From the NCBI GenBank assembly GCA_946403315.1, contig CAMIZK010000001.1:1588-65587 (forward strand): a stretch of 64,000 nt of DNA, in the 5' to 3' direction. Positions 9,242-62,783 of the stretch are shown here, in pieces (the first letter of the stretch is position 1; each line of letters starts with the position of its first letter). The notes beneath the pieces are model-generated. The model was not told the DNA's origin and ran no database searches. It saw nothing but the letters and a program-made list of their open reading frames with translations. The translations under genes and the position numbers were made by a program. The DNA comes from an uncultured Bacteroidales bacterium (GTDB lineage: Bacteria; Bacteroidota; Bacteroidia; Bacteroidales; Paludibacteraceae).

Positions 9242-10428
9242 TGAATATCACAGATCGTTTTTTGAAATACGTATCGTTCTGCACAACGAGTGACGAGAAT
9301 ACGGGCATGACCCCTTCGACACCGGGTCAGATGGAGTTTGCCAAGTATCTGGCGCAGGAGTTAAAAACCATCGGTCTCACCGAGGTTTCTCTCGATGAAA
9401 ACGGATATATTATGGCGACATTAGAGGCGAATGGCGAAGGGCGAATGGCGAAGGGCGAATGTCCTACCATCGGTTTCATCGCCCATATGGACACGAGTCC
9501 GGATGCCAGTGGTAAGCATATCAAAGCTTCGATCGTGAAAGCGGAAGAGCGCGATTATATCGATGCGCGTTATGCGGGTCAGGACGTGATTGTAACAGAC
9601 ACAACGACGCTGCTCGGTGCGGACGACAAAGCCGGTATCGCTGAGATCGTAACGGCGATGGAGTATCTGGTACAACATCCGGAGATCAAGCATGGCAAGG
9701 TGCGGGTAGGCTTTACGCCGGACGAAGAGATCGGCCAAGGAGCGGATCATTTTGACGTCAAAGCCTTCGGTTGCGATTTTGCGTACACCATGGACGGCGG
9801 TGCGATTGGTGAGTTGGAGTTCGAGAACTTCAATGCGGCATCGGCGAAAATCAAAGTGCATGGTCTGAATGTGCATCCGGGTTACGGCTATCATAAGATG
9901 CGCAACTCCATGCGCATCGCTTACCAGATTGCCGTCATGTTACCGCGTTTCCAGACACCGGAGCATACGCAGGGTTACGAAGGATTCTACCATTTGGTAG
10001 GCATGAACGGTACCGTAGAAGAAACCACACTCAGTTACATCATCCGGGATCATGACCGCACCCAGTTCGAATACCGCAAACGGGAACTGGAGCATTTGGT
10101 GCGTAAGATTAACACCGAGTTCGGAGAAGGCACAGCGGAGATCGAGATCAAGGATCAATACTATAACATGCGGGAGATGATCGAACCCGTCATGCACATC
10201 ATCGATCTGGCCAAAGAGGCCATGACTGCCGTGGGTGTAACACCTAACGTGAAGCCGATTCGTGGCGGAACAGACGGTGCACGACTGAGTTTTGAAGGTC
10301 TGCCGTGTCCGAACATCTTTGCCGGCGGAGAGAACTTTCACAGCCGGTACGAATACTTACCGGTACCGAGTCTTGAGGCCGCGGAACAAGTTATTTTGGA
10401 AATCATTAAAAAAGCATCAATATGTTAA
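9241..10428 (+). CDS. pepT: Peptidase T (tripeptide aminopeptidase, M20B)
   Basis: The N-terminus is [14 protein letters not shown]. Motifs [29 protein letters not shown] and RGGTDGA are present. It contains an in-frame heptamer array ([12 protein letters not shown]). Confidence 0.85.
9426..9460 (+). repeat. Heptamer array, GGCGAAT/GGCGAAG x5, in frame in pepT ([11 protein letters not shown])
   Basis: ggcgaat ggcgaag ggcgaat ggcgaag ggcgaat. Confidence 0.92.
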
Positions 10429-23900: not shown

Positions 23901-23927
23901 AAAGGCAAAAGGCATTTTACGCCTTTC
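23901..23927 (-). terminator. Possible hairpin downstream of rpmF, fused to the heptamer array
   Basis: Sense strand: AAAGGC-gtaaaat-GCCTTT followed by tgcctttt. The stem is short and the T tract is weak. Confidence 0.3.
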
Positions 23928-23957
23928 ACCTTTCACTTTTCACTTTTCACCTTTCTC
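23923..23957. repeat. Intergenic heptamer array, (C/T)TTTCAC x5, abutting the rpmF stop codon
   Basis: ctttcac ctttcac ttttcac ttttcac ctttctc. The last unit contains the rpmF stop (complement of tca). Confidence 0.85.
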
Positions 23958-36952: not shown

Positions 36953-39900
36953 TTAATACAGCATAATTTTACCGGAACTGAGTCGTGTCTTCTCATCGGC
37001 AAAGAAACAATAGATATACGGCTGACCCGGTATCACATCGATCAACAGACCGGAACGGGTATCCGTCACATCGTTCAGATGTTGCTGCATGTCTGCGCCC
37101 TGAATGATCTGTGCATCATTCGGGTTTGCAACCGGTACTCGGTCATAGAATACCATATGTCCGTACTGGTCGTAGAGGGCGATAGTCACACCCTGACGAA
37201 CGGTAGCCGCCAGAATCTGGCACGAACCCTGTACGCGTTTGAGCAGCACGTCGGCGGAGGTCACCTGCTCACCCGGTTTGATATCCGAGATCGCAAAGTC
37301 AATATAGTAATACCGCTCGCTTCCGTCAGCTGCCGTACAAATGATGGCACAAGTATCACCAATTACCACACGACCCAGATCGACTTCCGCATTCTCCGAA
37401 CGTGCTTCCGCATTAATCTCCGGTACCGCACCACCTTCTAATATATAATAGGTGTAGAACGTGGTCTCCGGATCAAAGTCAGCCAGCATATTTCCATCCA
37501 CTGTGATCCATGCCAAAGCATTGTCACCGTCTTGCGCCGTGATCTGACTGATCAGATAGGTGCAGGATGTATATCCGTCTTGCGCCACAACCACGATATT
37601 GATCACGCCGTCTGCATCGGTATAGATCGTATCTACGGCCAGGCTGTCGCTTAAGGTATAAGTCACAGTCTCCTGCGTGAAGTAAGCCGCACTGTCTGTT
37701 CCGTACGGATGCGCATACACATATTCGGTCTTCGTCGGACGGAAGTCCGCAAACTCCTCACCATTCATTGCCAGCGAGATCAACAAGGCGTCAGACGGTT
37801 TGACGAAATGGAAAGTGATCGTATAGATCGCCTGATCCTCACCGTTCGGTGCCGTCACCGTCACATCGATCTGCACATCGCCGTTCGGCAGGTAATGCAA
37901 GGTCGTATCCGCCTGCTGCTCCTCGTCGTAATAAACCGGAGTGATCGTCGGCAACTGCGCCTCTAAGCTCTGCTCCTTGTCGTATTGCAGGTTCACCAGA
38001 TAACTGTACACCTCCGGACGATACGGGAATTGCGACGTCGGATAGGTCGTTCCGTCCGCATCCGTCAGCACGATGTCACGCAACGTGGTGTTAGCCGATT
38101 TGAGGCGCTCAAACGTCATCTTATAGGTACTCTGATAATTAATATCTTCCGCCGTCACATAAACCAGCACCGTATCTTCTACCACTTGGATCTCGTACAC
38201 TTGTGCTTCCTCTTTCTTGATCACGGAAACTACCGGAACAGATGCTTCTTTCTCGATCTCCACCTTGTAGTTGAAGCGCTCCGAATCGAAGTAAGCCAAC
38301 GGTTTACCACCTAAGTTAATCATGTTCAGCGTCGCTACCGTGGACAGTTCCACCGGATAATGGATCGTGTACAGACGCGTCTTACCGGTAGCTGCCGTCA
38401 CGGTGATGATGGATTTGTAACCGAGCGACTTACCGCTTAACGAGTCTTCCGGCATCTGGGAAACAAGCACCGTCTGATAGTCGTCACCGGCGATGTATTC
38501 CACGTTCGGCATCTGACCGTTCAGCTCTGCGGCATATTCCGCACTGAGGGTCACGTAATAGTCTGTCGTAGCCGGCGCAAAGTTCGCCAATTGCTTTTGA
38601 TCCACAAAGATCATCTGCAGGTAATCCACATCGGATTTGTCGATGGTATACGAAACGGTGTACGTATTCTTCTTGCCGCTCTCCGAGGTGACGTAGATCT
38701 GACGAATGAGCGTGTTCGTGGTGTGCTCCACGGTATCCATATAAATGGTCTGCCAGTCGTCTTGTTCCTGCCAACTCAGATCCGGGAAAGCGATGGTACC
38801 TACCGGTAAGGAGAGTGCATAATACATTGTGCTCGCATCAAAGCCCTCCAAAGCCTGACCGTCCTGATAGATCATGTTCAGCTGATCGGCATCGGACTGC
38901 GTGAGGTGGAATACCACTACATAGGTATTCTCCCGAACCGTCGGATCTTCTGCCTGCACCTTGATGGTAGCCTGCAGTTTGTCGGTATCGATCTCGATGG
39001 ATTGGATCACCTGACCGGCTTCCGCTTTCTGCGCAGCCACTTCCGGCATCGCGTGTATACCTACCGGCAGATCTACCTGGTAGAAGTAATACGCCGGATC
39101 AAAACTGTCCAACGAGTCTCCATCCAGGAAGATCATACTCAGGTCAGCATTCTTCGACAACGGCACGGTAAACTTCAGCGTGTACGTATTAAGCGTTCCG
39201 TCCACGGCACGTACATCCAGCAATATCGAATCCGGACGATGAAGGATCTCTACCGTCTGACCGTCCATCTTGAGTTGTGCACTCACTTCCGGCAGCACGG
39301 TCGTGCCGGACGGCAGATGGATCTCGTAGTTGTTATTACCGCCGTTAAATGCCAGGTCGGCATTCAGTGCATGCTCAAACGTATCCATCGTCTGACCGTT
39401 CAGCAGGATATTCGCCAACTGCGCGTCGTTCGATTTGTTCTCGATGTAAATCATCACCTCGTACTTGGAATGGTCACCGTTCTCTGCCGTCACCTGTAAT
39501 GTATATTTGTACTGGTGGTTCTCCTGGATCGTTTCGATCTCCGTCGTCACGGTCTGGAAGCGGTCATCGGAAGTATAATCGATCTCGATAGAGGAAGAAC
39601 GAATGGACTGCGAATAGAAATGGCGTCCGGCTTCAAACTGCTCCACCGGTTCACCGTTCACCATGATACCCGTCAGATCCACACAACTGCTCTTGGCGGC
39701 TGAGATAGTGATGGTATAGGTGTTATCGCTTCCGTCGCCTGCCTGTACATACAGTTCGGTAGCCGAACCGTTGAGTTCACCGGTAGTCAAGGTCACGTGT
39801 TGCTCTTCGTCACCTACCACATACGTGATCGACGGCATCGTCGGTATAGCCGTCTTCACCGCCGGAACCGGCAGCTCAACGGTATAGTCAAACGTGGTCG

Positions 39901-42900
39901 GAACAAAACCATCCAATGCCACACCATCCAGCAGAATCGCCGACAAAGTAGCATTATGGCTCTTCGGACGACGAATGGTTACTTGATAGGTCTTAGTGGT
40001 ACTGTCTTCTGCCGTCACTGTCGCCGTATAAACAACCACTTCTCCTGCCGCCGTCGCTTGATTGGTCACAATGGTCTGAACGCTCTCTGCCTCCACTGCT
40101 TTGATGACAAACTCACCGTCCAACTCGATTGTATATTGGGTATCCGACGCACTGAATTCAGTATATGGTTCACCGTTAATCAGGATATTCGCCAGGTTCG
40201 CATTACCGCTCTTCTCCGTCGGATAGGTCAGCACGTAGGTATGATTGGTATTTCCAAATACTTGCCATTCCATGTGATCCGGCGCCTGGATATATACCAC
40301 CGAGTCCTTATCGAACTTACGCTCAAACAAGATCGCCTGAGTCGGTTTAGCCTCCGTTGCGGAATAGGTGTCGCCACCTAATGCCTGCCAAGGCGTACCG
40401 TTCTTCGTGAACTCCTTGATCTGACCGTTCGTCGTGATCGTCGGATCAATACGGTGGATCGTGTACGTCTGTTGGGTCACACCGTCCTGAGCAGTTACGG
40501 TGAATACCGCACCGTCTTTGGTATAATCGATATCGACTAACTGACCCTCTTTCTTGATGATCTCCACGATCGGCATAGTCGTTGCTTCTACGGAGTAGAT
40601 CAGCTGACCGGCATCTACCGTGTTGAGCGTACCGCTTTCCAAGGACCAGCTCTCCGGTTCGGCATCGTTGCTCTTGGTCTCACGGAATACATAGACGGTC
40701 GTTTTCTCACTGCCGTTCTCTGCGGCCACTTTCACCGTCACCGCATTACCGTTCTTGCTCATCGTGATCAACTGATGGATACTCTCCGGCGTGACGGTCA
40801 TACCCGGTAACTGCTTCGTACCGTACGGCAGTGCCACAAAGACGGTGTCGTCCTTGGTGGTGGTTGCATACGAACCGAAAGCAGCGGTGTAATCGAGTGT
40901 TGTCACCGGTGTACGTTTGAGCACCACCGTATAAACAGTACTATCCTTGGCGTTCTCACCGTAGTTAACCACTTTCGCTTGCAATTCTCCGTTAATCCAT
41001 TCGCCGTTATTGAGCCACTCGATAGTTTGCATTTGATCATGAACCTTACCGGTGAACTTCAGTTCCGGCAAACCTAAGATCACTTCATTCGCACCTAAGG
41101 TGTACGTAAACGTGTTACCGCTCTTCGTCGCCGATTGACCGTTCACCTTCACACCCGTCAACTCGGAGTTATAGACGAAATGAATATTGTTATAGATCAC
41201 ACTGGACTCGTAGATTGTTGTTCCGTTGAATTTAGACGAGTTCTCTTGATCGCAGGACGACAGCATCACATTGAATTTCGACACTGCGTTGGTAGGCAAA
41301 GTGATCGGTACATTCACCGTCTGCCACGTGTTGAGAGACGAGAAATCACCGGTATAACTGCTTTCTTTGTAATTCGATCCGTCCGACATCGTCAGCCACA
41401 TCTTCCAGTTGGTGATGTTATTAGTGGACAGCGGTTTGGCTTCAAACGCCAAGGATTCCGGAGTATTTTTGAAGTTCGTACCGGTAGAAGCATTCTTACC
41501 GACAGATGAAGATGTTTTTCCTGTACTACCTAAAGAAAGACTCATAGTACCCAGAGTCATTTGTCCGGATACGGAACAGTTCATCGGAGCGCCGCGTAAA
41601 GTAGAGAGCAGTACACCGTTCGAACCGGACGGAACAACCTCCATTCCAGTCGAATAGGTGAAGTCAATGCCCATGATACCCCACGTATATCCGTCGTCGC
41701 AGTCGGCCGGCACTTTCCAAAGCGAAGAGGGTTTATAGCCGTTTCCTTGTGCTGCCTTAGTCCAGTCCACCGTGAAATCAAAGATATTATCATAGTTGGT
41801 ATAATACCAACATACACTGTACGTCTCGCCGTTCGCTACCGTCAGCGTCACTTGCTTCTTCTTGTTATCCAAATTGGAAACCGTCACGTTAGCATTGCCG
41901 TAAGCCGTACCTGCGAAATCGGATTTGGCAGGCTGTCCCGTCACTTTGACGATGTAGTTATATACATCCGGACGGAAATTGGGTACCGTCACGCCTTTGA
42001 AGGTCAGGTTCTGCAACTTACCTGCGGTCTCATATGCCGGCATCTTAGGTACGACGGTATAGGTCACGTCGGACTCCCCTGCCCGGTTGGCGGCAGCAAT
42101 CACCGTTGCTCCGCGACGGATACCTCCGTTGTAGAAATAAACGGTTTGTTCGTTATAGTTCTTCTCCACATTTGTCACCTCAAAACTCTTGGCGCCGAAC
42201 GGCAGGTTCACGATGTTCTCACCCGCTACCGGTTGCAGTTCACCATTCACCGTAGCACCCGAAGCGTTCGTGTACGAATAAGCGATATGCTTGATCTTGT
42301 TCTCGCCTTCCGGAACGGCTACGTTGTAACGGATCGAATAGGTGCGGCTGTTCGTACCCTTCTCGTTGGTCACGATGATCTTCGTCTCACCCGTCAGCGG
42401 TGCTTCGATATAATGAACCGTCTGACCGGCTTGCGCCTTATACACCACGTCGTACGGTTCTACCTGCTCAAACGGCACGTTGAACGTGAACTCCGTCGTG
42501 TTCACATCTTTGGCTTCACCGTCTATCATCAGGGTTTGTAACTGCGTGTCATCCGATAACTCAACCGGGAAAGCAATCGTATAGTCTCCTTCCGAACCGT
42601 CTTGGGCTACCACATGAATCCGGGCCACTCCGTTGGGACGGCAGAAATAGGTTGTTACCGTCTGGTTGTCCGATTGCGGCACCGCGTTGATATTCGGAAT
42701 CACCTTCGCATCACGCGGCAAAGCGATGCTGTAGTTCGTCTTGTCGGCACGGAAACCATCCATCGACACACCGTCGATAAGAATGTCCGCCAACTGTACA
42801 TTATTACTTTTAACACGCGTGTACTCGATCGTGTAGATGTTCTGCGCTCCATTCTCGGCTTGTACCAGCACATGCTGCGTCGAGTCATTCTCCGCATAAA

Positions 42901-45900
42901 CCATCACTGCCTGACCGGGTTCCGGTACAGCAGTCACGTTCGGTAAGGCAGCACCTTCCGGTACCACAAATCCGCTGTAGTTATTCCGGGTCTTGCTATA
43001 GTTCAAGTCGTATCCTTCGATTGCCAGATCCTGCAGCGTCGCATCCGCATGCAGTGCGATAGTATAGGTCACGGTGTACGTCGCTTGACTTCCGTCTTCG
43101 GCAGCTACCGTAATACCGAATGTACCTGTTTCCAGCTGACCGCAGAAGATCACCTGCGTGTTCTCTTTCGCCAGATACGAGATCGCCGGATATGCACTGC
43201 CTGCCGGTAAATCATAAGCGTACGTCAACTGACCGGCATCAAAACCGTCTATCAGCGCACCGTCTGCATAGATCGCTTCCAGCGCTTTGTCCGACGAATA
43301 GAGACGGGTGAACGAGACGCTGTACGATGCTTTCTCACCCTCGTCGTTGGTCACATACACCCATGCCACGTCGCCTTTCCATAACACATTCACATGCTGC
43401 GATGCGTCTGCGGCAATACCTTCTACCGTCGGACGAACGCTCCTATACGTTGCCTCATAGGTCATCTGCGTCGGTGCAAAACCGGCGATGCTCACGCCGT
43501 TCACTAACAAGTCTTGCAACTGCACCGCCGTCGAGGCTACCGGCACAAACGTGATGGTGTACGTGTTGGCAGCACCTTCTTCCGGCAGCACCTTGATGGT
43601 AGCCACGCCGGCTGCGTACGGTGCCGTGATCGTCACCTGCTGACCGGCGGCTTTATCCACCGTGATTGCCGGACAGGTCTCACCCGGTAAAGTCAGGATA
43701 TATGTCAACGAATCCGAACGGAAACCGTCCAGTTCCACGCCGTCCAAGTAAATCATCTCTAAGAACGCGTTCTGCGATACCTGCACGATGAACGTGATCG
43801 TATATTCGCGTTTGGCACCGCTCTCGGCCGTCACCGTTATCTTCTGCACCTTGCCTTCTAATACACTCAGTACCCGTTGGCTCGCCTCGGCCTTGTCGTA
43901 CGTCACCGTCGGAATAGCACTCACGCCTTCCGGCAGATGATACTCATATGCGGTAGTCTGAGGATCAAAACCGTCCAAGGCTACCCCGCCCACGTAGATC
44001 ATGTTCAGGTTCACGTTCGTGCTGGTAGCTACCGAGAAATGGAGGATATACGTGCGGCTGGCACCACTCTGGGGACGAACCGTGATCTTGTAATCACCCG
44101 TCAGACCGCTGATCGTACGTACCGTCGCGGTCTGGAAGTTCTCGTTCTGCAGCGTATAGGTTACTTCCGGTAAAACGGTTGTTCCCTGCGGCAGGTTGAT
44201 ATAGTATTCCTCCGTCTGAGGATCAAAAGCAATATCGTATCCGGCTACACTCAGGTTCGCTAAGGTGTTATCCGTGTACGTCGTTACCGAGAAAGCAATC
44301 TGGTAGATCGTCGTGCTTCCGTCACCGGCAGTGACCGTGATACGGGTCTTACCGTTCAAACCTGCCGTCGTGATGCTGTAGGTCTGCCATTCGTCGCCGA
44401 GAACCGGTTCTATCGTCGGCAGTTCGGTCGTTCCTACCGGTAACGGATAGGCATACGACGTCTGATCCGGATTAAATCCTTCGATCGCTACTCCGCCGAT
44501 GAGGATTCCGTTCAGCGTCGAGCGGTCGGATTTCTCCGTGGAGAACACGATCTTATACACCGTCTGGTCTCCGTTGCCTGCCGTCACCGTGATACGTACC
44601 GTTCCGTCCAACGCACCATCCGGCAGGTCGGTCTTCTCGATCGTCTGGTAGTCATCGCCCTTGATCCAGGTGATCGCCGGCAAAGCGGTTGTACCTAACG
44701 GCATGTTCACGTAATAGGTCGTGTTCATCGGATCGAAGGTCGTGATATAGTCACCTGCCGACAGGTTCTGCAGATAGGTGTACGAAGAAGCCTCCAGACG
44801 GAAGTTCAGTTTATACACTTTCGCTACCGTATTCCCCGGCGTGGTCACGCTTACCGTGTAGGTTCCGCCGTCAATGATCGACGGTGCCTTATAGACGATC
44901 GTCTGCTCCCCTGCCGGATAAGCCGAAACACCCTCCACCGTCGGCATGGTGGTCGTGTTGGTAGGCAGCGACACCTTATATACCGCCTGCGAAGGTGTGA
45001 AACCCGGTATCGATTTTCCGTTCACCTTGATATCCTGCAGCGTGTTATCCGCTAACAGTCCCACTTTGAACGTGATGTTATACGTCGCTTTACCGGTTCC
45101 GTTAGCCGCCGTCACGTTGACGGTTGCTTTACCCGTCAGCGAAGCAGCCTGCGTGATCGTGTAGGTCTGTTCATCTTCCTGCTTCTCCGCATCCACTACC
45201 GGCACACCTTGCGCACCGTACGGTAGCTCTACCGTGTAGTTATAGGTACTCGGACTGAAATTCGAGATAGCGGCCTGTTGCTGATTGCCGTGGATATCCG
45301 TGTAAGAATAATAGATGTTCGCCAACTTGGCATTACTGCTCTTCTCGGCTTGGAACAGGATCTGATAGGTTGTGGTACTGCTGCCGTCTTCGGCACGCAC
45401 CACGATCGTGGTCGGTGTTCCGCCTACGGTACCGTTGGTGATCGTGATCTCGCTGCCTTGCAACTTACGACCCGGGAAGGACTTCGTCGTTCCTCGAGCA
45501 TTGGTCAATGAACCGGCACCGCGGAATGCCTCCACAGACGGAACGGCCGTCGTACCTTCCGGTACCGAATAGACCTGCACACCCGTGTTGTCGGGATCAA
45601 AACCCTTCCATTCCTTACCGCCCACACGCAGGGTCTGGATCTTGGAGGAATAGATCAAATTCACATCATCCACGTACAGTGAGTTGCCTTCATACAAACC
45701 GTCGTTGGCACGGAAGTTCGGATAGTTGGACGCCGAGAAGATCATGTTCATGTACTTCGGCGTGTTGTCGTTGAAGTAATAGATCGGCACTTTGATGTTC
45801 GTCCAGTTGCCGTAGTTGGCGCGTTCACGCCACATACCTTCGCATACCTGGTCACCGGCTACCGTCGTCTTACATTCGTTTCCGTTCATGGCGATACGGA

Positions 45901-46447
45901 TATCCGACTCCTCGTTGGTCTCGGAGTGGGAAGTACACTGGGTGTTCTTTCCCTTATAGGACGTACCCTGCGCTTGTTTCTCCCATGCGTAATACAAGAG
46001 GTAAAAATCCTCTTTGTCCCAATTGCTTCCCGTACGCTTGATCCATACCGACATCGTATCCGGACGATGGGTCCAACTCTGGCCGCCCGACGTACCGGCT
46101 GTCGCCTGGTTGATAGCCGTGATACTCGGCAAGTAGGCCCAAGGCTGACCGATCGCAAAATAACCCGGACTGGTCTCCGTGATACCCATGGCCCCCACCG
46201 ACTGATCCTGTACCATCAGACAGTAACCGCCGTTATGACCGCTCTCCTTATGGGCAAAGTTAAACTTCATACCCACCTGCTCCACGTTCGACGCATTCCA
46301 TCCTTTCGGCTGCGGCTCGCCGCTGAAAGCAGCTCCGGACCAATCCTCAAAATTAGCGTTGGTCACCTGATACGAGTCTGCCCACACGGCCAAAGGCATG
46401 CCGATAAGGACCAAAGAGACTAATACCTTACGTAAAAATGTACTCAT
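36953..46447 (-). CDS. Giant (3164 aa) secreted surface protein with two PCMD-like domains, roughly 25-30 cadherin-like beta-sandwich repeats and a T9SS-type C-terminal domain
   Basis: The signal peptide is MSTFLRKVLVSLVLIGMPLAVWA. The N-terminal segment (YQVTNANFEDWSG...PKGWNASNVEQ) is PCMD-like. A module of about 90 aa recurs, of the form L..I.V.G..I.GF.P....Y...LP.GT...P.V........Q...I.........I.VTAEDG....Y.I.F. A second PCMD-like domain lies mid-protein. The C-terminal roughly 90 aa (VTIALYDQYGHMVFY...SSGKIMLY) resemble a T9SS sorting domain. Confidence 0.75.
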   Translation of the reverse strand: MSTFLRKVLVSLVLIGMPLAVWADSYQVTNANFEDWSGAAFSGEPQPKGWNASNVEQVGMKFNFAHKESGHNGGYCLMVQDQSVGAMGITETSPGYFAIGQPWAYLPSITAINQATAGTSGGQSWTHRPDTMSVWIKRTGSNWDKEDFYLLYYAWEKQAQGTSYKGKNTQCTSHSETNEESDIRIAMNGNECKTTVAGDQVCEGMWRERANYGNWTNIKVPIYYFNDNTPKYMNMIFSASNYPNFRANDGLYEGNSLYVDDVNLIYSSKIQTLRVGGKEWKGFDPDNTGVQVYSVPEGTTAVPSVEAFRGAGSLTNARGTTKSFPGRKLQGSEITITNGTVGGTPTTIVVRAEDGSSTTTYQILFQAEKSSNAKLANIYYSYTDIHGNQQQAAISNFSPSTYNYTVELPYGAQGVPVVDAEKQEDEQTYTITQAASLTGKATVNVTAANGTGKATYNITFKVGLLADNTLQDIKVNGKSIPGFTPSQAVYKVSLPTNTTTMPTVEGVSAYPAGEQTIVYKAPSIIDGGTYTVSVTTPGNTVAKVYKLNFRLEASSYTYLQNLSAGDYITTFDPMNTTYYVNMPLGTTALPAITWIKGDDYQTIEKTDLPDGALDGTVRITVTAGNGDQTVYKIVFSTEKSDRSTLNGILIGGVAIEGFNPDQTSYAYPLPVGTTELPTIEPVLGDEWQTYSITTAGLNGKTRITVTAGDGSTTIYQIAFSVTTYTDNTLANLSVAGYDIAFDPQTEEYYINLPQGTTVLPEVTYTLQNENFQTATVRTISGLTGDYKITVRPQSGASRTYILHFSVATSTNVNLNMIYVGGVALDGFDPQTTAYEYHLPEGVSAIPTVTYDKAEASQRVLSVLEGKVQKITVTAESGAKREYTITFIVQVSQNAFLEMIYLDGVELDGFRSDSLTYILTLPGETCPAITVDKAAGQQVTITAPYAAGVATIKVLPEEGAANTYTITFVPVASTAVQLQDLLVNGVSIAGFAPTQMTYEATYRSVRPTVEGIAADASQHVNVLWKGDVAWVYVTNDEGEKASYSVSFTRLYSSDKALEAIYADGALIDGFDAGQLTYAYDLPAGSAYPAISYLAKENTQVIFCGQLETGTFGITVAAEDGSQATYTVTYTIALHADATLQDLAIEGYDLNYSKTRNNYSGFVVPEGAALPNVTAVPEPGQAVMVYAENDSTQHVLVQAENGAQNIYTIEYTRVKSNNVQLADILIDGVSMDGFRADKTNYSIALPRDAKVIPNINAVPQSDNQTVTTYFCRPNGVARIHVVAQDGSEGDYTIAFPVELSDDTQLQTLMIDGEAKDVNTTEFTFNVPFEQVEPYDVVYKAQAGQTVHYIEAPLTGETKIIVTNEKGTNSRTYSIRYNVAVPEGENKIKHIAYSYTNASGATVNGELQPVAGENIVNLPFGAKSFEVTNVEKNYNEQTVYFYNGGIRRGATVIAAANRAGESDVTYTVVPKMPAYETAGKLQNLTFKGVTVPNFRPDVYNYIVKVTGQPAKSDFAGTAYGNANVTVSNLDNKKKQVTLTVANGETYSVCWYYTNYDNIFDFTVDWTKAAQGNGYKPSSLWKVPADCDDGYTWGIMGIDFTYSTGMEVVPSGSNGVLLSTLRGAPMNCSVSGQMTLGTMSLSLGSTGKTSSSVGKNASTGTNFKNTPESLAFEAKPLSTNNITNWKMWLTMSDGSNYKESSYTGDFSSLNTWQTVNVPITLPTNAVSKFNVMLSSCDQENSSKFNGTTIYESSVIYNNIHFVYNSELTGVKVNGQSATKSGNTFTYTLGANEVILGLPELKFTGKVHDQMQTIEWLNNGEWINGELQAKVVNYGENAKDSTVYTVVLKRTPVTTLDYTAAFGSYATTTKDDTVFVALPYGTKQLPGMTVTPESIHQLITMSKNGNAVTVKVAAENGSEKTTVYVFRETKSNDAEPESWSLESGTLNTVDAGQLIYSVEATTMPIVEIIKKEGQLVDIDYTKDGAVFTVTAQDGVTQQTYTIHRIDPTITTNGQIKEFTKNGTPWQALGGDTYSATEAKPTQAILFERKFDKDSVVYIQAPDHMEWQVFGNTNHTYVLTYPTEKSGNANLANILINGEPYTEFSASDTQYTIELDGEFVIKAVEAESVQTIVTNQATAAGEVVVYTATVTAEDSTTKTYQVTIRRPKSHNATLSAILLDGVALDGFVPTTFDYTVELPVPAVKTAIPTMPSITYVVGDEEQHVTLTTGELNGSATELYVQAGDGSDNTYTITISAAKSSCVDLTGIMVNGEPVEQFEAGRHFYSQSIRSSSIEIDYTSDDRFQTVTTEIETIQENHQYKYTLQVTAENGDHSKYEVMIYIENKSNDAQLANILLNGQTMDTFEHALNADLAFNGGNNNYEIHLPSGTTVLPEVSAQLKMDGQTVEILHRPDSILLDVRAVDGTLNTYTLKFTVPLSKNADLSMIFLDGDSLDSFDPAYYFYQVDLPVGIHAMPEVAAQKAEAGQVIQSIEIDTDKLQATIKVQAEDPTVRENTYVVVFHLTQSDADQLNMIYQDGQALEGFDASTMYYALSLPVGTIAFPDLSWQEQDDWQTIYMDTVEHTTNTLIRQIYVTSESGKKNTYTVSYTIDKSDVDYLQMIFVDQKQLANFAPATTDYYVTLSAEYAAELNGQMPNVEYIAGDDYQTVLVSQMPEDSLSGKSLGYKSIITVTAATGKTRLYTIHYPVELSTVATLNMINLGGKPLAYFDSERFNYKVEIEKEASVPVVSVIKKEEAQVYEIQVVEDTVLVYVTAEDINYQSTYKMTFERLKSANTTLRDIVLTDADGTTYPTSQFPYRPEVYSYLVNLQYDKEQSLEAQLPTITPVYYDEEQQADTTLHYLPNGDVQIDVTVTAPNGEDQAIYTITFHFVKPSDALLISLAMNGEEFADFRPTKTEYVYAHPYGTDSAAYFTQETVTYTLSDSLAVDTIYTDADGVINIVVVAQDGYTSCTYLISQITAQDGDNALAWITVDGNMLADFDPETTFYTYYILEGGAVPEINAEARSENAEVDLGRVVIGDTCAIICTAADGSERYYYIDFAISDIKPGEQVTSADVLLKRVQGSCQILAATVRQGVTIALYDQYGHMVFYDRVPVANPNDAQIIQGADMQQHLNDVTDTRSGLLIDVIPGQPYIYCFFADEKTRLSSGKIMLY

Positions 46448-46633: not shown

Positions 46634-47797
46634 TTATGCAATATCTGAATGCTGACGGCTGACGGCTGATAGCTTTTTCAAATGACAGAGCATGAGACTG
46701 CCGTCTTCCCGGCGAAGGTGCATTCCGTTGCCTTCGCAGAACGAGAAAGCCTTGCAGTCTTTGCAGGGTTCCGTTTGCCGCATCCAACTGCGGTCACGGT
46801 ACGGTTTAAATCCGTTTTCCCAAACGGACCAGAAAGAGTCTTTGTAGATATTGCCCTGGTAGTATTTTCCCCGGATGGAGGTGCAGGCAGATATCGAACC
46901 GTCGATGAGAATAGAGGCAACGGAGATACCGGCTGCGCATTGGTAGAGATGATCCCGTACACGCCCTTCATAGTCCCCCAAATAGCCTTCGCACGAATAG
47001 CTCACATGCCTACCCGCTTCCCGTTCGCACACGATATAGTCCATTAGCTGTTTGAACTGCGCATCCATAAGGATCAATTCCGGATTTTCCGCTGCACGCC
47101 CCATAGGGTCGATACCGAAGACACGCCAATTGCGAACACCCAGTTCCCACAGCATCTCCCTTATCGCCGGTAAGTGGTCTATCGTGCGCTGGTTCACACA
47201 CGTCACCACATCCCAGGCTATCGGCTGACGGCTGACGGCTAAATGCTGACGGCTGACGGCTGAATGCTGACGGCTGACGGCTGAATGCTGACGGCTGTTA
47301 TAATCCGCAATCAGTTTGATTGCTCGTGTGGCACCTTCGAAAGCCAAAGGGTGCTGCCGCAGCCATACATGGTCCGCTTCCAAACCGTCACACGAGACGG
47401 TGATGGAGCGTAAACCGGCATCTAACAGTTCATGAAATTTCTTCTCCGTCAGCGCCAAACCGTTGGTCACCATTCCCCATGGATAGCCGCGTTGCTTGAG
47501 CGCCCTACCCACTTCCGCCAAGTCTTTGCGCATCAGCGGTTCACCGCCGGAGATAACGATCATCACTTCATGCGGATCCACGTGCGGTGTCACTTCCGTG
47601 TCGATGACCTTAAGAAAGTCTTCCGCCGGCATGTCCGGCGTCTCGATAGACGCAATGCAGTCGCTGCCGCAATGCAGGCAATGTACATTACATCGTAATG
47701 TGGACTCCCAGAACAGCTGGCGTAACGGATGCAACTCCTTCAAGTTATGCCTCCGCCAACGCTCTAACCACAGCGCTATCTTCAGCCTCAGTCTCAT
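46634..47797 (-). CDS. Radical SAM enzyme with a C-terminal SPASM domain
   Basis: CNVHCLHC is a CxxxCxxC motif, and ISGGEPL is present. The C-terminal Cys-rich SPASM-like region reads CAAGISVASILIDGSISAC...CKDCKAFSFCEGNGMH. The start overlaps the lipoprotein stop (ATGA, 47794-47797). It has two in-frame heptamer arrays. Confidence 0.85.
   Translation of the reverse strand: MRLRLKIALWLERWRRHNLKELHPLRQLFWESTLRCNVHCLHCGSDCIASIETPDMPAEDFLKVIDTEVTPHVDPHEVMIVISGGEPLMRKDLAEVGRALKQRGYPWGMVTNGLALTEKKFHELLDAGLRSITVSCDGLEADHVWLRQHPLAFEGATRAIKLIADYNSRQHSAVSRQHSAVSRQHLAVSRQPIAWDVVTCVNQRTIDHLPAIREMLWELGVRNWRVFGIDPMGRAAENPELILMDAQFKQLMDYIVCEREAGRHVSYSCEGYLGDYEGRVRDHLYQCAAGISVASILIDGSISACTSIRGKYYQGNIYKDSFWSVWENGFKPYRDRSWMRQTEPCKDCKAFSFCEGNGMHLRREDGSLMLCHLKKLSAVSRQHSDIA
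46644..46671 (-). repeat. Heptamer array with sense unit CAGCCGT, at the extreme C-terminus of the rSAM/SPASM gene (LSAVSRQHSDIA-stop)
   Basis: Plus strand: tctgaat gctgacg gctgacg gctgata. Confidence 0.85.
47217..47300 (-). repeat. 12-unit (84 nt) heptamer array with a 21-nt superperiod inside the rSAM/SPASM gene (SRQHSAV x about 4)
   Basis: Plus strand: gctatcg gctgacg gctgacg gctaaat gctgacg gctgacg gctgaat gctgacg gctgacg gctgaat gctgacg gctgtta. Confidence 0.95.
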
Positions 47798-48019: not shown

Positions 48020-48052
48020 CAAAGGTACAACAAAAAAATGATATATGCAAAT
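48020..48052 (-). promoter_or_regulatory. Promoter of the lipoprotein-rSAM/SPASM pair
   Basis: Sense strand: TTTGCATATATCATTTTTTTGTTG-TACCTTTG, with 20-nt spacing. ATG 47997 lies 23 nt below the -7 box. Confidence 0.8.
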
Positions 48053-48078: not shown

Positions 48079-48516
48079 TTACAAATCGGGGTTTTCGACG
48101 CGGATGACGGCACGGATGAAGTTATCCGGACGGACATAGATAGTGTAGTTTCCGTCTTTGTCACGCGGTGCGATAGGATCGGGTTTTCCTTTGAGTTGGG
48201 CGTAGAAACGAGTCATGTAGGAGTCTAACAAGGCCTGTTTGGCAGGTTCGAGGGGCGTTTTGTTTTTGGCAGCATTGATGAGTTCCTGCGCAAGATGGGA
48301 GGCCTTTCCGAATGCGGTCATGTTGGCTTTTTCGCGGAGAAGAGGCGGATTTGTCTTGAAGTTACGGGGGTTTGGTTTAAAGACCTCCATACGTCCGACT
48401 TTGGTGATTTCACCATCAAAACCACGGAATGTTTTCTTGCGGATAGTCAGTCCGTTTCGAGTGTTCAACGAGCCTGTAATCTCTTCCACAGAAGAGTTGT
48501 ATTTGAGTTTTGCCAT
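48079..48516 (-). CDS. Conserved hypothetical 145-aa protein (paralogue of 62139..62576)
   Basis: It aligns collinearly with the other 145-aa ORF (MAK..Y, TG.L.TR, ITK, ALLD.Y..RF..QLKG.PDP.AP.DK.G, DNFIRA.I). It has its own promoter and a long repeat-bearing leader. Confidence 0.6.
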   Translation of the reverse strand: MAKLKYNSSVEEITGSLNTRNGLTIRKKTFRGFDGEITKVGRMEVFKPNPRNFKTNPPLLREKANMTAFGKASHLAQELINAAKNKTPLEPAKQALLDSYMTRFYAQLKGKPDPIAPRDKDGNYTIYVRPDNFIRAVIRVENPDL

Positions 48517-48562
48517 ATATGAAAAATAGTTGTTATTTCGAAGTTAAAAACCCTAATTATTT

Positions 48563-48617
48563 CGCACTTATCGCGCACAAATGACGCACTTATCTCGTAC
48601 TTATCACGCACTAATTT
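48563..48617 (-). repeat. Five tandem 11-nt repeats in the 5' leader of the 145-aa gene 48079..48516
   Basis: Plus strand: cgcacttatcg cgcacaaatga cgcacttatct cgtacttatca cgcactaattt. The sense-strand consensus is ATAAGTGCGnn. Confidence 0.85.
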
Positions 48618-48635
48618 TAGCATGTAATTATATTG

Positions 48636-48660
48636 GTATTATATACTATGTATATAATAC
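48636..48660. repeat. Perfect 11-bp inverted repeat with a 3-nt spacer in the same leader
   Basis: GTATTATATAC tat GTATATAATAC, about 20-45 nt downstream of the predicted transcription start. Confidence 0.85.
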
Positions 48661-48684
48661 TAGAGAGATGATTGATTTTCGGTG

Positions 48685-48716
48685 CAAAGATACTAAAAAT
48701 TTTTGGAATATGCAAG
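48685..48716 (-). promoter_or_regulatory. Promoter of the 145-aa gene 48079..48516 (long leader)
   Basis: Sense strand: cTTGCATATTCCAAAAATTTTTAG-TATCTTTG, with 20-nt spacing. The ATG is about 165 nt downstream. Confidence 0.7.
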
Positions 48717-54824: not shown

Positions 54825-56222
54825 ATGCAAAGAACAGTAATTATCGATGCGTTAAAACGCACGGATTTTGGGTCAGAGATCAACGTGAGAGGATGGGTTC
54901 GCAGCCGTCGCGGCAATAAACAAGTGTCGTTTATTGCGCTGAATGACGGTTCGACGATCAAGAACATCCAGATCGTGGTGGACCTGGAGAAATTCGATGA
55001 GGAGCGACTCAAACCTGTGACTACCGGTTCGTGTATCTCAGCGACGGGTATCCTGGTAGAGAGTCAGGGAGCAGGTCAGGCGGTTGAGATTCAACTGAAG
55101 GATCTGGAAGTCTATGGTACCGCTGATCCGGAGAAATACCCGTTACAGAAGAAAGGTCTGAGTATGGAGTTTTTGCGTACTATCGCACATCTCCGTCCCC
55201 GTACCAACACCTTTGGTGCGGTATTCCGTATCCGTCATAACATGGCCATGGCGATTCACACCTATTTCCATGAGCATGGATACTTCTATTTCCACACGCC
55301 GCTCATCACGGCCAGTGACTGCGAAGGTGCCGGTCAGATGTTCCAGGTGACGACCAAGAACCTGTATAACCTCAAGTACGACGAGAACGGTCAGATCGAT
55401 TATAGCGACGATTTCTTCGGCAAACAGGCAGCGCTTACCGTTTCCGGGCAGTTGGAAGGTGAGTTAGGCGCCATGGCATTAGGAAAAATCTATACCTTCG
55501 GTCCTACGTTCCGTGCAGAGAACAGTAACACACCGCGTCACTTAGCGGAGTTCTGGATGATTGAGCCGGAAGTGGCGTTCATTCAGAAAGAGGAACTCAT
55601 GGACCTCGAAGAAGACTTCATCAAATACTGCGTTCGTTGGGCCTTAGAGCATTGTATGGATGACCTGGAGTTCCTCAACCAGTTTGTGGACAAGGGTCTG
55701 ATCGAGCGTCTGAAATCGGTGGTAGATACCGAGTTTGTCCGCCTACCCTACACCGAGGGTATTAACATCCTGCAGGAAGCCATCAAGAACGGTAAGAAGT
55801 TTGAGTTCCCCTGCAACTGGGGCGATGACTTGAGTTCGGAGCATGAGCGTTTCTTAGTGGAAGAGCACTTCAAGAAACCCGTCATCATGACCGACTATCC
55901 GAAGGATATCAAGGCGTTCTACATGAAGATCAACGAGGACGGAAAGACCGTGCAAGGTACCGACGTGCTGTTCCCGCAGATCGGTGAGATCATCGGCGGT
56001 AGTGTACGTGAGGAGAGTCTGGACCTGCTGAACGATGAGATTGAGCGTCGTCATATCCCGATGAAGGATATGTGGTGGTATTTGGACACCCGTCGTTTCG
56101 GTAGCGCACCGCACGCAGGCTTCGGTTTAGGCTTCGAGCGTCTGATGCTGTTCGTAACGGGTATGCAAAACATCCGTGACGTCATTCCGTTCCCGAGAAC
56201 ACCGAAAACGGCGGAGTTCTAA
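54825..56222 (+). CDS. asnS: Asparagine--tRNA ligase
   Basis: The 465-aa protein has an OB-fold N-terminus ([23 protein letters not shown]) and class II motifs ([34 protein letters not shown]). Confidence 0.92.
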
Positions 56223-56223
56223 T

Positions 56224-56258
56224 TGAAAAATGAAAAATGAAAATTGAAAATTGAAAAT
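56224..56258. repeat. Intergenic heptamer array, TGAAAA(A/T) x5, immediately after the asnS stop
   Basis: tgaaaaa tgaaaaa tgaaaat tgaaaat tgaaaat. Confidence 0.9.
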
Positions 56259-56291
56259 TTCATATCATAAAAACACTAACAAACAATCGTT

Positions 56292-61363: not shown

Positions 61364-61772
61364 GCAGACGCTGCAGACAGCGCTGCAACAGATTGAACAG
61401 GAAGTAGGGCACGTAGATCGCTGCTCTTCTTTTTTCTATTCCGAGCCTTGGGGTTTCGAGAGCACCCACGGGTTTTGTAACCTCTGCTGCCGCGTAGAGA
61501 CGGAGTTGATGCCGTTAGAGGTACTGCATAAGACGCAGGCGATTGAACGGGCGTTGGGACGAACGCATAAGAGCATGGATGGCCATTATGCGGACCGAAC
61601 GATCGATATAGATCTGATACGGGTTTTTGATAAGGAGGGGAAAGAGATAAAATTAGCTATCAGCCATCAGCCGTCAGCCATCAGCGATGAGCCTCAATGG
61701 CTTACGCTCCCCCACCCGCTTTGGGAGCAGCGGGATTTTGTGAAGCTTCCATTAGCTGAGATAATGTACTGA
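61320..61772 (+). CDS. folK: 2-amino-4-hydroxy-6-hydroxymethyldihydropteridine diphosphokinase (HPPK)
   Basis: YFLSLGSNLGN, YSEPWGF, RTIDIDLI and LTLPHPLWEQRDFVKLPLAEI motifs are present. I place the start at ATG 61320, overlapping cvpA by 44 nt. It has an in-frame heptamer array (LAISHQPSAISDE). Confidence 0.85.
   Translation: MYYFLSLGSNLGNCEQTLQTALQQIEQEVGHVDRCSSFFYSEPWGFESTHGFCNLCCRVETELMPLEVLHKTQAIERALGRTHKSMDGHYADRTIDIDLIRVFDKEGKEIKLAISHQPSAISDEPQWLTLPHPLWEQRDFVKLPLAEIMY
61654..61688 (+). repeat. Heptamer array of the CAGCC(A/G)T family, in frame in folK (AISHQPSAISD)
   Basis: tagctat cagccat cagccgt cagccat cagcgat. Confidence 0.9.
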
Positions 61773-62139
61773 GGCGATAGGATATCGTGATATGACGGTT
61801 TCCTTCGGCATTAATCCGCTTCATCTCGGAGCGGAATAGTTTGCCGTGTGCCGAGGTGTCACGGAGTTGGTTGACGGCGATGTAATAATGGATCATCTCA
61901 TGGAGGATCGTGTCTTGGATGAGTTCTTCAGGTAAGTCAAAGCGGGTGTTAATGCGGAGAACGAATTTCTCATTACGTACCGAGCCGAAGAGCCAGGTAC
62001 GATGCCGCACAAAAGTCACCTTGCCGAGGAAGGTGCGGGCATGGGAGAGTTTGATGGGTATCGGAGGAAGGGAGCCGCCGAAATAACGGGCGTTGTACTC
62101 ATCAAAGCGGGCTTGTATGTAATCGAGCGTGGGGACCAT
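61702..62139 (-). CDS. SprT-like zinc metalloprotease-domain protein
   Basis: YFGGSLPPIPIKLSHARTFLGKV is followed by an HExxH motif (ILHEMIHYY). The start ATG shares one nucleotide with the upstream TAA (TAATG). Confidence 0.7.
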   Translation of the reverse strand: MVPTLDYIQARFDEYNARYFGGSLPPIPIKLSHARTFLGKVTFVRHRTWLFGSVRNEKFVLRINTRFDLPEELIQDTILHEMIHYYIAVNQLRDTSAHGKLFRSEMKRINAEGNRHITISYRLSTLSQLMEASQNPAAPKAGGGA

Positions 62140-62576
62140 TATGATTTGAGTTCCTGATAGATCATGGCACGGATGAAGTTATCGAAGCGGAAATAGTACT
62201 TCTGCTTGCCTGATTTGTCGGTCGGGGCTTGTGGGTCAGGGGCTCCTTTGAGTTGCGACTCAAAACGACGGCGGTACTCATCGAGAAGGGCGTGTTGCTC
62301 ATCGGAGGCGGTGTCAGGGAACTTATAGGCATAGATGAGGGCGGTGGTACGCTTAGCCGCTTCGCCGAAATGCTGCAGGTGGGCCAACTCGTTGCCTTGA
62401 GGAGGTGTTTGGTTGTAATCGCGTTTGTGTTTCTGCAGATAGACTTCCGGATCACATTGTTTAGTGATCGCACCTCTCGTGTCATGTAGATGCTTGACAC
62501 GCGTAATGAGTTCGTGTCTTGTGTCAAGGGCGCCTGTTGTGAGGTCAATGCCTGCTGAATAAGTTACTTTTGCCAT
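62139..62576 (-). CDS. Conserved hypothetical 145-aa protein (paralogue of 48079..48516)
   Basis: See 48079..48516. It has the same length, shared motifs, its own promoter and a leader bearing 11-nt repeats. Confidence 0.6.
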   Translation of the reverse strand: MAKVTYSAGIDLTTGALDTRHELITRVKHLHDTRGAITKQCDPEVYLQKHKRDYNQTPPQGNELAHLQHFGEAAKRTTALIYAYKFPDTASDEQHALLDEYRRRFESQLKGAPDPQAPTDKSGKQKYYFRFDNFIRAMIYQELKS

Positions 62577-62669
62577 ATTGTGTGTATTTTTGAATTGCTT
62601 TTGGGTATTTAGAGGGTAAGGACTCTATAGTGCCGTTGTAAGGTGGTCCGTGGATGAAACCGATTATAA

Positions 62670-62735
62670 CCTACTAATTACCTACTAACCACCTACTAAT
62701 CACCTACTAAATACATACTAATCTCATACTAGAGT
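62670..62735 (-). repeat. Six tandem 11-nt repeats in the 5' leader of the 145-aa gene 62139..62576
   Basis: Plus strand: cctactaatta cctactaacca cctactaatca cctactaaata catactaatct catactagagt. The sense-strand consensus is TTAGTAGGTnn. Confidence 0.9.
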
Positions 62736-62750
62736 ATGCTAAATTTGATG

Positions 62751-62783
62751 CAAAGGTACAACAAAAAAATGAGATATGCAAGG
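62751..62783 (-). promoter_or_regulatory. Promoter of the 145-aa gene 62139..62576 and the coupled SprT-like gene (long leader)
   Basis: Sense strand: cTTGCATATCTCATTTTTTTGTTG-TACCTTTG, with 20-nt spacing. The ATG is about 170 nt downstream. Confidence 0.75.

Follow-up and report, generated by a model that had tools for sequence, protein, structure and literature searches.

Paralogous 145-residue proteins of an uncultured Paludibacteraceae bacterium lie behind clade-specific arrays of 11-nucleotide repeats, candidate tandem operators

In type II plasmid partition, the repeats of the parC site serve at the same time as an autoregulatory operator. In the ribbon-helix-helix repressors, among them omega of pSM19035 (7-bp heptads), MetJ (met-boxes) and CopG, short direct or inverted repeat operators overlap the promoter or start, the dimers polymerise cooperatively along the DNA, and the genes are autoregulated. 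TRAP, an 11-mer ring, recognises (G/U)AG triplets spaced by about 5 nt, the repeats in an unstructured 5' leader being bound by one oligomer, and RAYT transposase genes, which are single copy, are flanked by the REP/REPIN repeat that is dispersed intergenically, with RAYT clades and repeat classes going together. ParR of plasmid R1 requires at least two 11-bp repeats of parC, and paralogous ParR families bind solely their cognate parC, so that several can coexist in one cell (PMC9426499). Here we describe two paralogous genes for 145-residue proteins, each preceded by its own array of 11-nt repeats, in a 64,000-nt stretch of DNA (the window) from an uncultured Bacteroidales bacterium of the family Paludibacteraceae (contig CAMIZK010000001.1, positions 1,588 to 65,587). 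The reading we favour, tentatively and short of thinking it probable, is that these are paralogous DNA-binding proteins, each of which would read its own tandem operator and repress its own gene, with dispersed arrays that lack such a gene (orphans) as further sites. ParR/parC is the closest system in logic, with the ribbon-helix-helix repressors of tandem sites also close.

Paralogue 1, taken from the list of open reading frames, occupies positions 48079-48516 of the minus strand, with its ATG at 48516, and encodes a basic protein of an undescribed family. A Bacteroidetes-type promoter, CTTG-N20-TATCTTTG, was read from the sequence at 48685-48716 on the same strand (TTG at 48713-48715, -7 box TATCTTTG at 48685-48692). 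Paralogue 2 (62139-62576, minus strand), also of 145 residues, is 42% identical to paralogue 1 (E = 4e-33) and follows a promoter read as TTG-N20-TACCTTTG at 62751-62782 on the minus strand (TTG at 62779-62781, -7 box TACCTTTG at 62751-62758). The promoter consensus in Bacteroides and other Bacteroidetes is TTTG at -33 and TAnnTTTG at -7, and both paralogues carry both elements of a sigma-A promoter, separated by 20 nt where 17-23 nt were allowed. Counting from the last nucleotide of the -7 box as far as the ATG, the leaders are 168 nt (paralogue 1) and 174 nt (paralogue 2) long, against 18-64 nt for the seven other window genes with a recognisable promoter of their own.

The leader of paralogue 1 contains five 11-nt direct repeats of the unit ngaTaAGTgCG at 48563-48617 (minus strand), which read in the sense direction AAATTAGTGCG (48617-48607), TGATAAGTACG (48606-48596), AGATAAGTGCG (48595-48585), TCATTTGTGCG (48584-48574) and CGATAAGTGCG (48573-48563); a degenerate sixth unit, AAATAATTAGG, follows at 48552-48562 (minus strand; pattern match at 48552-48570 with 3 mismatches). 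Tandem Repeats Finder (TRF) reported a period of 11 with 4.5 copies and a score of 58, and a two-unit pattern gave 5 matches where 0.44 were expected, a number reached in 0 of 100 shuffles. The leader of paralogue 2 holds six units of (T)nATTAGTAGG at 62670-62735 (minus strand; TRF 62669-62731, score 77-91; 4 pattern matches against 0.01 expected). At the head of this array a short palindrome, CATACT-CT-AGTATG (62725-62738, minus strand), is formed by an inverted half-unit facing the first unit, comparable ATACT/AGTAT heads being found at other clade-2 loci; in having one inverted half-unit before the direct units it recalls omega operators. The array is followed by a tail, TTATAATCGGTTTCATCCACGGACCACCTTACAACGGC (62632-62669, minus strand), which is found with orphan arrays as well. 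Within the 64-kb window there is no third paralogue and no additional array of either unit. The original prediction had given the promoter and start codon of paralogue 1, an unusually long leader, five 11-nt units and a second paralogue of the same architecture with another repeat sequence, and each of these points was borne out, coordinates included.

The pairing of gene and array extends to the whole family. We collected 68 genome loci, all from rumen or gut Bacteroidales/Paludibacteraceae metagenome-assembled genomes (MAGs), and 66 of them have their strongest period-11 signal, over the approximately 8 kb of the locus, at 20-311 nt before the ATG. Homologues without an upstream repeat, which according to the original prediction would speak against the pairing, were not encountered: where upstream DNA was available, an 11-nt array was present at 38/38 loci of clade 1 (that of paralogue 1), 23/23 loci of clade 2 (that of paralogue 2) and in 7/7 further clades. 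The clade-1 loci yielded 194 units at 4-6 copies per locus, with the consensus ngaTaAGTgCG, and the clade-2 loci 150 units at 4-12 copies per locus, with the consensus tnaTTAGTAgG. The distant clades, reached by a third protein search and contig look-ups, have the units GATTATTATGT, GATTCTTATGT, TAATCACATAG, GATTATTGGGT, GATTACTATGT, kATTACTATGw, a degenerate TTATTCATAGG type and GATAAGTTAAA. Across clades the period of 11 and the copy number of 4-12 are kept and a GAT(T/A)A frame is common, while 4-5 positions vary with the protein clade, so that the predicted constancy of period and copy number with change of sequence holds well beyond the two window genes. Within the unit a contiguous 8-nt core is followed by a 3-nt spacer. 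In clade 1 position-specific variants hold their order across species (unit 1 AAATTAGTGCG, unit 4 TCAT.., unit 5 CGGT..), which argues that the arrays are old, inherited and under selection rather than freshly slipped. In the genome loci that surround the family genes, 582 kb in all, a strong period-11 array is seen nowhere but in front of such a gene. Close relatives whose flanks agree nevertheless vary in the number of clade-2 units (12 in L054, 8 in L055, 11 in L140), so arrays also expand and contract on short time scales.

Two different units in one genome, each before one paralogue, call for two specificities, and the paralogues would be their simplest source. We infer that the encoded protein is the binder, that its target is DNA rather than RNA, and that its effect is repressive. 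Each paralogue would recognise its own 11-bp unit, and several of its protomers could line up along the array as a filament, with one protomer for each helical turn of the double-stranded DNA. In its position at or shortly after the transcription start of the protein's own gene, an occupied array might block promoter escape or elongation and so give negative autoregulation; where orphan arrays precede other promoters, that protein would have additional sites to bind. An 11-nt period close to one helical turn is one reason to prefer a DNA target.

The protein itself is of a kind that could bind nucleic acid. Its pI is 10.0 in paralogue 1 and 8.9 in paralogue 2. An AlphaFold2 model built on a 98-sequence alignment (pLDDT 85.9, pTM 0.71) has a short strand (residues 15-17), a long β-hairpin (23-31 / 37-46) and helices at 60-85, 91-108 and 130-141. 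Invariant residues include R26, K28, G35, E44, R51, P57, E62, Q107, Y127 and R135; the conserved hairpin is predicted to carry the invariant R26, K28 and R51, with three helices after it, and we count this hairpin together with the basic pI in favour of nucleic-acid binding. Foldseek searches with two AlphaFold2 models found no fold match in the PDB (best E = 1.3) or BFVD (best E = 0.15). A match to mitochondrial bL27 in a PDB sequence-profile search (E = 1.8) was taken as noise. No match for the 145-residue protein was found in Pfam, NCBIfam, PHROG or PADLOC, and a Pfam scan of 98 members taken singly at E <= 5 gave no recurrent family, no Y1_Tnp and no ribbon-helix-helix match. Successive searches returned 112 and then 295 homologues, either unnamed or from Paludibacteraceae MAGs; a profile search of 1.84 billion representative proteins gave only 203 clusters at E <= 0.001, and no relative was found in the 2.9 million viral contigs of IMG/VR. 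Every family member with a named source is a hypothetical protein from a Paludibacteraceae MAG, and the family is undescribed and restricted to this lineage. Our literature search found nothing relevant on such repeats in Paludibacteraceae. Two sequences stand out: in P0308 (314 aa) the N-terminal half is family-like and is joined to a region that by eye resembles a pseudouridine synthase, perhaps through a fused gene call or perhaps as a real neighbour, and in P0380 (2350 aa) 40 stretches match profile positions 19-58, the β-hairpin part.

Wherever an array is gene-linked, it follows the -7 box and is in sense orientation. In clade 1 it begins 4-5 nt past the box, at about +1, in 17 loci and 67-96 nt past it in 19. 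The distance from array to ATG ranges from 16 to 217 nt. Contigs assembled from three metatranscriptomes (62156-62709, 62372-62727 and 62500-62715) run from the coding sequence (CDS) of paralogue 2 through the leader into the array; their ends fall at 62709-62727 and none crosses the -7 box. Since these contigs enter the array and stop before the promoter, transcription starts upstream of the repeats and the array is part of the mRNA. A start downstream of the repeats had been put forward as grounds for abandoning the idea; for paralogue 2 the start lies on the other side, and for paralogue 1 the Logan RNA contigs cover the CDS only (48089-48529) and are uninformative on this point. The leaders are not significantly structured (folding z-scores of -0.95 and -1.17). 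RNAalifold on the clade-2 leader alignment gave a consensus of -1.6 kcal/mol with 0 compensatory pairs and hence no conserved structure, and Rfam had no match in the window at the gathering score nor in 8 loci at E <= 0.1, so that the leaders differ from the Rfam leader RNAs and riboswitches in having neither a covariance-model match nor covarying structure. When the paralogue-2 leader is folded to minimum free energy, the array pairs with anti-units in the tail, a pairing that the alignment does not support, and a Shine-Dalgarno-like reading of AGGUGAU in clade 2 was dropped because the GA of the spacer is variable.

These results bear on a rival in which autoregulation takes place on the RNA, several protomers binding the units in the single-stranded 5' leader and controlling translation, stability or elongation. 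The array belongs to the 5' untranslated region, in sense, at all gene-linked loci, the RNA contigs of three runs contain that of paralogue 2, and both leaders far exceed any other in the window in length; C-poor units in an unstructured leader are what single-stranded RNA sites look like, and a contiguous 8-nt core with a 3-nt spacer fits RNA recognition. Several evenly spaced short repeats in an unstructured 5' leader are also found in the trp leader read by TRAP; unlike TRAP, the family has 11-nt units, no fold match, and orphan arrays outside leaders. With 16-217 nt between array and ATG, the start codon cannot as a rule be occluded directly, and no known RNA-binding fold or Rfam family was matched. 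With the palindrome and the orphan arrays described below also against it, we regard an RNA target as unlikely.

The palindrome lies in the interval between promoter and array of paralogue 1, where GTATTATATAC-ATA-GTATATAATAC (48636-48660, minus strand; found by sequence inspection and folding) is perfect over 11-bp arms. The form GTATTATATAC-nnn-GTATATAATAC recurs in 31/38 clade-1 loci and its arms co-vary (TATATTATATA / TATATAATATA; TACTATATAC / GTATATAGTA). It stands downstream of the -7 box, before the array, in 19 clade-1 loci and upstream of the promoter in 10. Because its symmetry is kept both where it is transcribed along with the gene and where it is not, it most likely acts at the level of DNA, and its presence on either side of the promoter counts against RNA as the target of the array that it accompanies.

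To follow the arrays beyond the family genes we scanned metagenome contigs for three exact clade-2 units and obtained at least 120 loci, of which 102 had sufficient downstream DNA to be assessed. An array was called gene-linked if the family hidden Markov model found a family gene within 500 nt and orphan otherwise; all counts that follow are among the matches listed. Only 17/102 were gene-linked and 85/102 were orphans. The array is therefore not private to the gene, and most orphans stand ahead of the promoters of other genes, in either orientation. The two groups differ in their promoters. A -7 box lies within 120 nt upstream of 14/17 gene-linked arrays against 4/85 orphans, and it likewise precedes the array in most genome loci; within 300 nt downstream the counts are 0/17 against 40/85. 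The full promoter pattern reads into the array in 11/17 gene-linked cases and 3/85 orphans. By contrast with the gene-linked arrays, which promoters read into, 20/85 orphans have a same-strand promoter just downstream and 9/85 an opposite-strand promoter just upstream, each directed away, so that 29/85 in total lie within 300 nt behind an outward promoter. The flanking genes have both orientations relative to the orphans. Rare placement behind a promoter and mixed orientation relative to the neighbours count against RNA recognition and, with the palindrome, favour DNA over an RNA leader; of the repeat-operator and the RNA-binding pair suggested earlier, the operator is thus the likelier.

Orphan clade-2 arrays recur at particular places. 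Five loci (L105, L110, L117, L159 and L177), from several rumen Bacteroidales, have one in the mraZ-rsmH spacer, antisense to both genes and ending about 25 nt from the rsmH start codon. Others are found at dnaN (L147), at rplM (L077) and upstream of an orthologue of the 3164-aa surface protein encoded in the window at 36953-46447 (L162); next to orthologues of this protein orphans recur also in L093, L095, L138 and L180. Clade-1 genes lie 0.5-4 kb upstream of the gene for this protein in 15/38 loci, and the nearness of clade-1 genes and of orphans to it may hint at a regulatory link to giant surface proteins. In six loci (L101, L109, L135, L190, L193 and L150) a second 11-nt array of another unit directly follows the orphan array, for example GAGTGGATAAC in three copies, which is DnaA-box-like (GTGGATAA), GAATGAATACC or TCGGGTGGATG. 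Arrays of different units can thus be concatenated.

A second rival takes array, head and tail together as an autonomous dispersed intergenic repeat, of the BOX/REP type or the site of another host factor, which the protein does not read. It would account for the large share of clade-2 arrays (85 of the 102 listed) with no family gene within 500 nt. Linked and orphan copies have in common a tail of about 35 nt, 23/113 tails among the matches listed resembling that of paralogue 2, 11 of them from orphans, and one orphan (L187) is identical to the tail in the window over 32 nt. In the DNA runs that hold the organism, the contigs of the L187 flank and of a second orphan flank have depths of 23.9 and 21.6, and the paralogue-2 gene 18.3 and 17.1 in the same runs; depths so like the organism's are compatible with two or more orphans in its genome. 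Copy numbers of 8, 11 and 12 in close relatives, and the varying position of the clade-2 gene-plus-array cassette among related genomes, likewise count in favour of this rival. Such a repeat leaves unexplained why nearly every clade has an array of its own unit in the same place, and why strong period-11 arrays stand only before family genes in the 582 kb; nor were a transposase, terminal inverted repeats or target duplications seen. We therefore doubt this explanation as well.

The comparison with RAYT and REP has the same two sides. A gene is paired with a dispersed repeat, the class of unit goes with the protein clade, and clade-2 orphans are abundant in rumen metagenomes; unlike RAYT, none of the 98 members has an HUH/Y1 (IS200/IS605-like) transposase domain, and where REPs form palindromic pairs on both sides, the 11-mers are direct tandem repeats that flank the gene on a single side. 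Some orphans form a second class with other flanks (..cgtgctaataa GAGTAGGTGA .. TTCCCGAGTGGATAAC ..), which may come from lineages without the family. An exact protein look-up of the orphan-bearing contigs named only "Bacteroidales bacterium". When orphan L078 was compared with the window, the upstream neighbourhood differed and insertion boundaries were not readable from the comparison. Two further ideas were given up. A constant module of array, tail and outward promoter, suggested by a spacing of about 135 nt, proved to be an artefact of measuring from the seed pattern, and the sequence from orphan tail to outward promoter is not conserved. An excess of DNA depth over the paralogue-1 array was discarded as evidence of orphans, which by depth are inseparable from conserved leaders of other species.

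The preference for paralogous proteins that read tandem DNA operators thus draws on the helical period, on where the orphans lie and how variously they are oriented, the palindrome on either side of the promoter, the lack of conserved RNA structure, and the iteron-like context of the basal clade, which directly follows a DUF3987 P-loop protein with a C-terminal HTH and an unknown 372-aa protein. Several findings weigh against it. The gene-linked arrays are transcribed in one orientation, C-poor on the sense strand and unstructured, which suits single-stranded RNA equally. Conservation of 8/11 positions in the unit is much for one face of a DNA helix, and the covariation of clade and unit is equally expected from co-inheritance of a duplicated gene with its leader. 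Orphans outnumber linked arrays by 85 to 17 among the matches listed, one class of them with other flanks, so that another factor may read the unit; and the predicted fold resembles no known DNA-binding fold in the PDB or BFVD.

We think it very improbable, for clades 1 and 2, that the proteins are centromere- or origin-binding adaptors from a mobile element, with the arrays as partition or iteron sites. In favour of this, the basal clade has its DUF3987 neighbour, the 372-aa protein and inverted 9-nt arrays in the spacer, islands with restriction-modification, GmrSD, Fic or RhuM genes contain some of the distant paralogues, and R1 parC is itself built of 11-bp repeats bound by ParR (PMC9426499). 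Against it, clades 1 and 2 occupy chromosomal neighbourhoods that are stable (MoxR/Bat operon, rSAM gene, giant surface-protein gene), no partner NTPase adjoins them, no member occurs in 2.9 million viral contigs, and the model suggests no ribbon-helix-helix or ParB-like fold. The family does resemble ParR/parC (type II partition in R1, pB171, pSK41 and the Clostridium perfringens pCW3 family) in having a small protein with direct repeats in the promoter or upstream region of its own gene or operon, and the array is clade-specific; cooperative binding is ParR's feature, and cognate binding here is putative. Unlike ParR, the 145-residue family appears from its model and the PDB search to lack the ribbon-helix-helix fold, and it has no Pfam match; unlike ParR/parC, there is no adjacent ParM, ParA or other partition NTPase, the genes are chromosomal and apparently monocistronic, and the repeats also occur as orphans at many unrelated loci. 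From the ribbon-helix-helix repressors the family differs in a unit of 11 rather than 7-8 bp, in a predicted β-hairpin with three helices, and in having no sequence or structural similarity to them. Plasmid iteron/Rep origins have iterons of 17-22 bp, in contrast to the 11-bp units found here; there is no Rep domain, clades 1 and 2 are chromosomal, and only the basal clade adjoins DUF3987. In the basal clade (L062-L065, L068, L075 and L199), two sets of three 9-nt repeats face each other in the spacer that separates the DUF3987 gene from the family gene, and they differ by locus (for example GCACTATTT x3 / AAAGTGCC x3; GTACATTTT / AAAATGTAC; GCGGTTnTT / AAAACCGC). They look like iterons or like a second operator, which the HTH of the DUF3987 protein might perhaps read.

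The 145-residue genes appear to be monocistronic. Their neighbours in the window are the genes for RelA/SpoT, a lipoprotein with a radical SAM (rSAM) protein (TIGR04133), and SprT. Paralogue 1 does lie directly upstream of the lipoprotein-rSAM pair, as had been noted; the adjacency stands and the link does not, because the pair has its own promoter at about 48020-48051 (minus strand), outside the paralogue-1 unit and marking its downstream boundary, and a higher RNA depth (contig depth of 24-51 downstream of this promoter against 2-4 over the 145-residue gene). An operon of the two was rejected also because rSAM is near only 13/38 clade-1 loci, at 0.5-4.3 kb, and an operon of paralogue 2 with SprT because SprT is near only 3/23 clade-2 loci. 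Clade 1 has a loose chromosomal neighbourhood, with the MoxR (MoxR/Bat) operon on one side and rSAM and the giant surface-protein gene on the other, and no recurrent NTPase family adjoins clades 1 and 2.

Some leaders have further features. Those of L021, L024 and L065, which belong to two protein clades, have a conserved, G+C-richer insert of about 140-150 nt between array and ATG (CCCTCT..GGCTTAGAGG.., ..CGAAGAGCGrG.GCAT.., ending near ATAGC), which is absent from the close relative L020, has no Rfam match at E <= 0.1 and looks like a small mobile or structured RNA element. Pyrimidine-rich, almost G-free tracts occur in the leaders of L008, L009, L020 and L023 and upstream of the orphans L085, L099, L102, L158 and L172, where they adjoin the G-rich arrays and are often themselves 11-12-nt repeats (CCCCTTCACmG, CCCTTTGCTAC). 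Tandem arrays of 7-nt units, a separate matter, are very frequent: the window contains 10 strong examples and 583 kb of related genome loci contain 86, where periods of 8-10 and 12-16 give 0-10. In the window they include 42-70, 360-397, 2859-2889, 4348-4375, 9426-9461, 23922-23955, 47222-47297, 56221-56259 and 61655-61693, among others; that at 47222-47297, CGGCTGA x 10.9, falls within the rSAM gene, where it is translated as the repeated peptide SAVSRQH.

Taken together, the sequences suggest a tandem-operator protein of undescribed fold with a dispersed set of arrays; most likely the family consists of regulators that bind nucleic acid in a sequence-specific way, each at an operator of its own. 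A bolder extension, which strikes us as quite improbable, is that the family forms a new DNA-binding class with a fold of its own, whose paralogues diversified along with an 11-bp address code, polymerise each on its own array, repress themselves and mark dispersed arrays ahead of other promoters, for example at giant surface-protein genes, the mraZ-rsmH spacer and dnaN, or else that the protein spreads arrays as RAYT does by a different chemistry. If the arrays are independent of the protein, the finding shrinks to a lineage-specific dispersed repeat and a hypothetical protein. If the proteins do read their own arrays, a tandem 11-nt code would here be recognised, sequence-specifically, through an undescribed fold, and at least eight unit types paired with natural specificity variants would be an unusually direct starting point for working out that recognition code. 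In that case the orphan arrays would amount to a regulon, or to a system of genome marking, invisible to annotation pipelines, and the family would offer a first regulatory handle on the uncultured Paludibacteraceae of the rumen.

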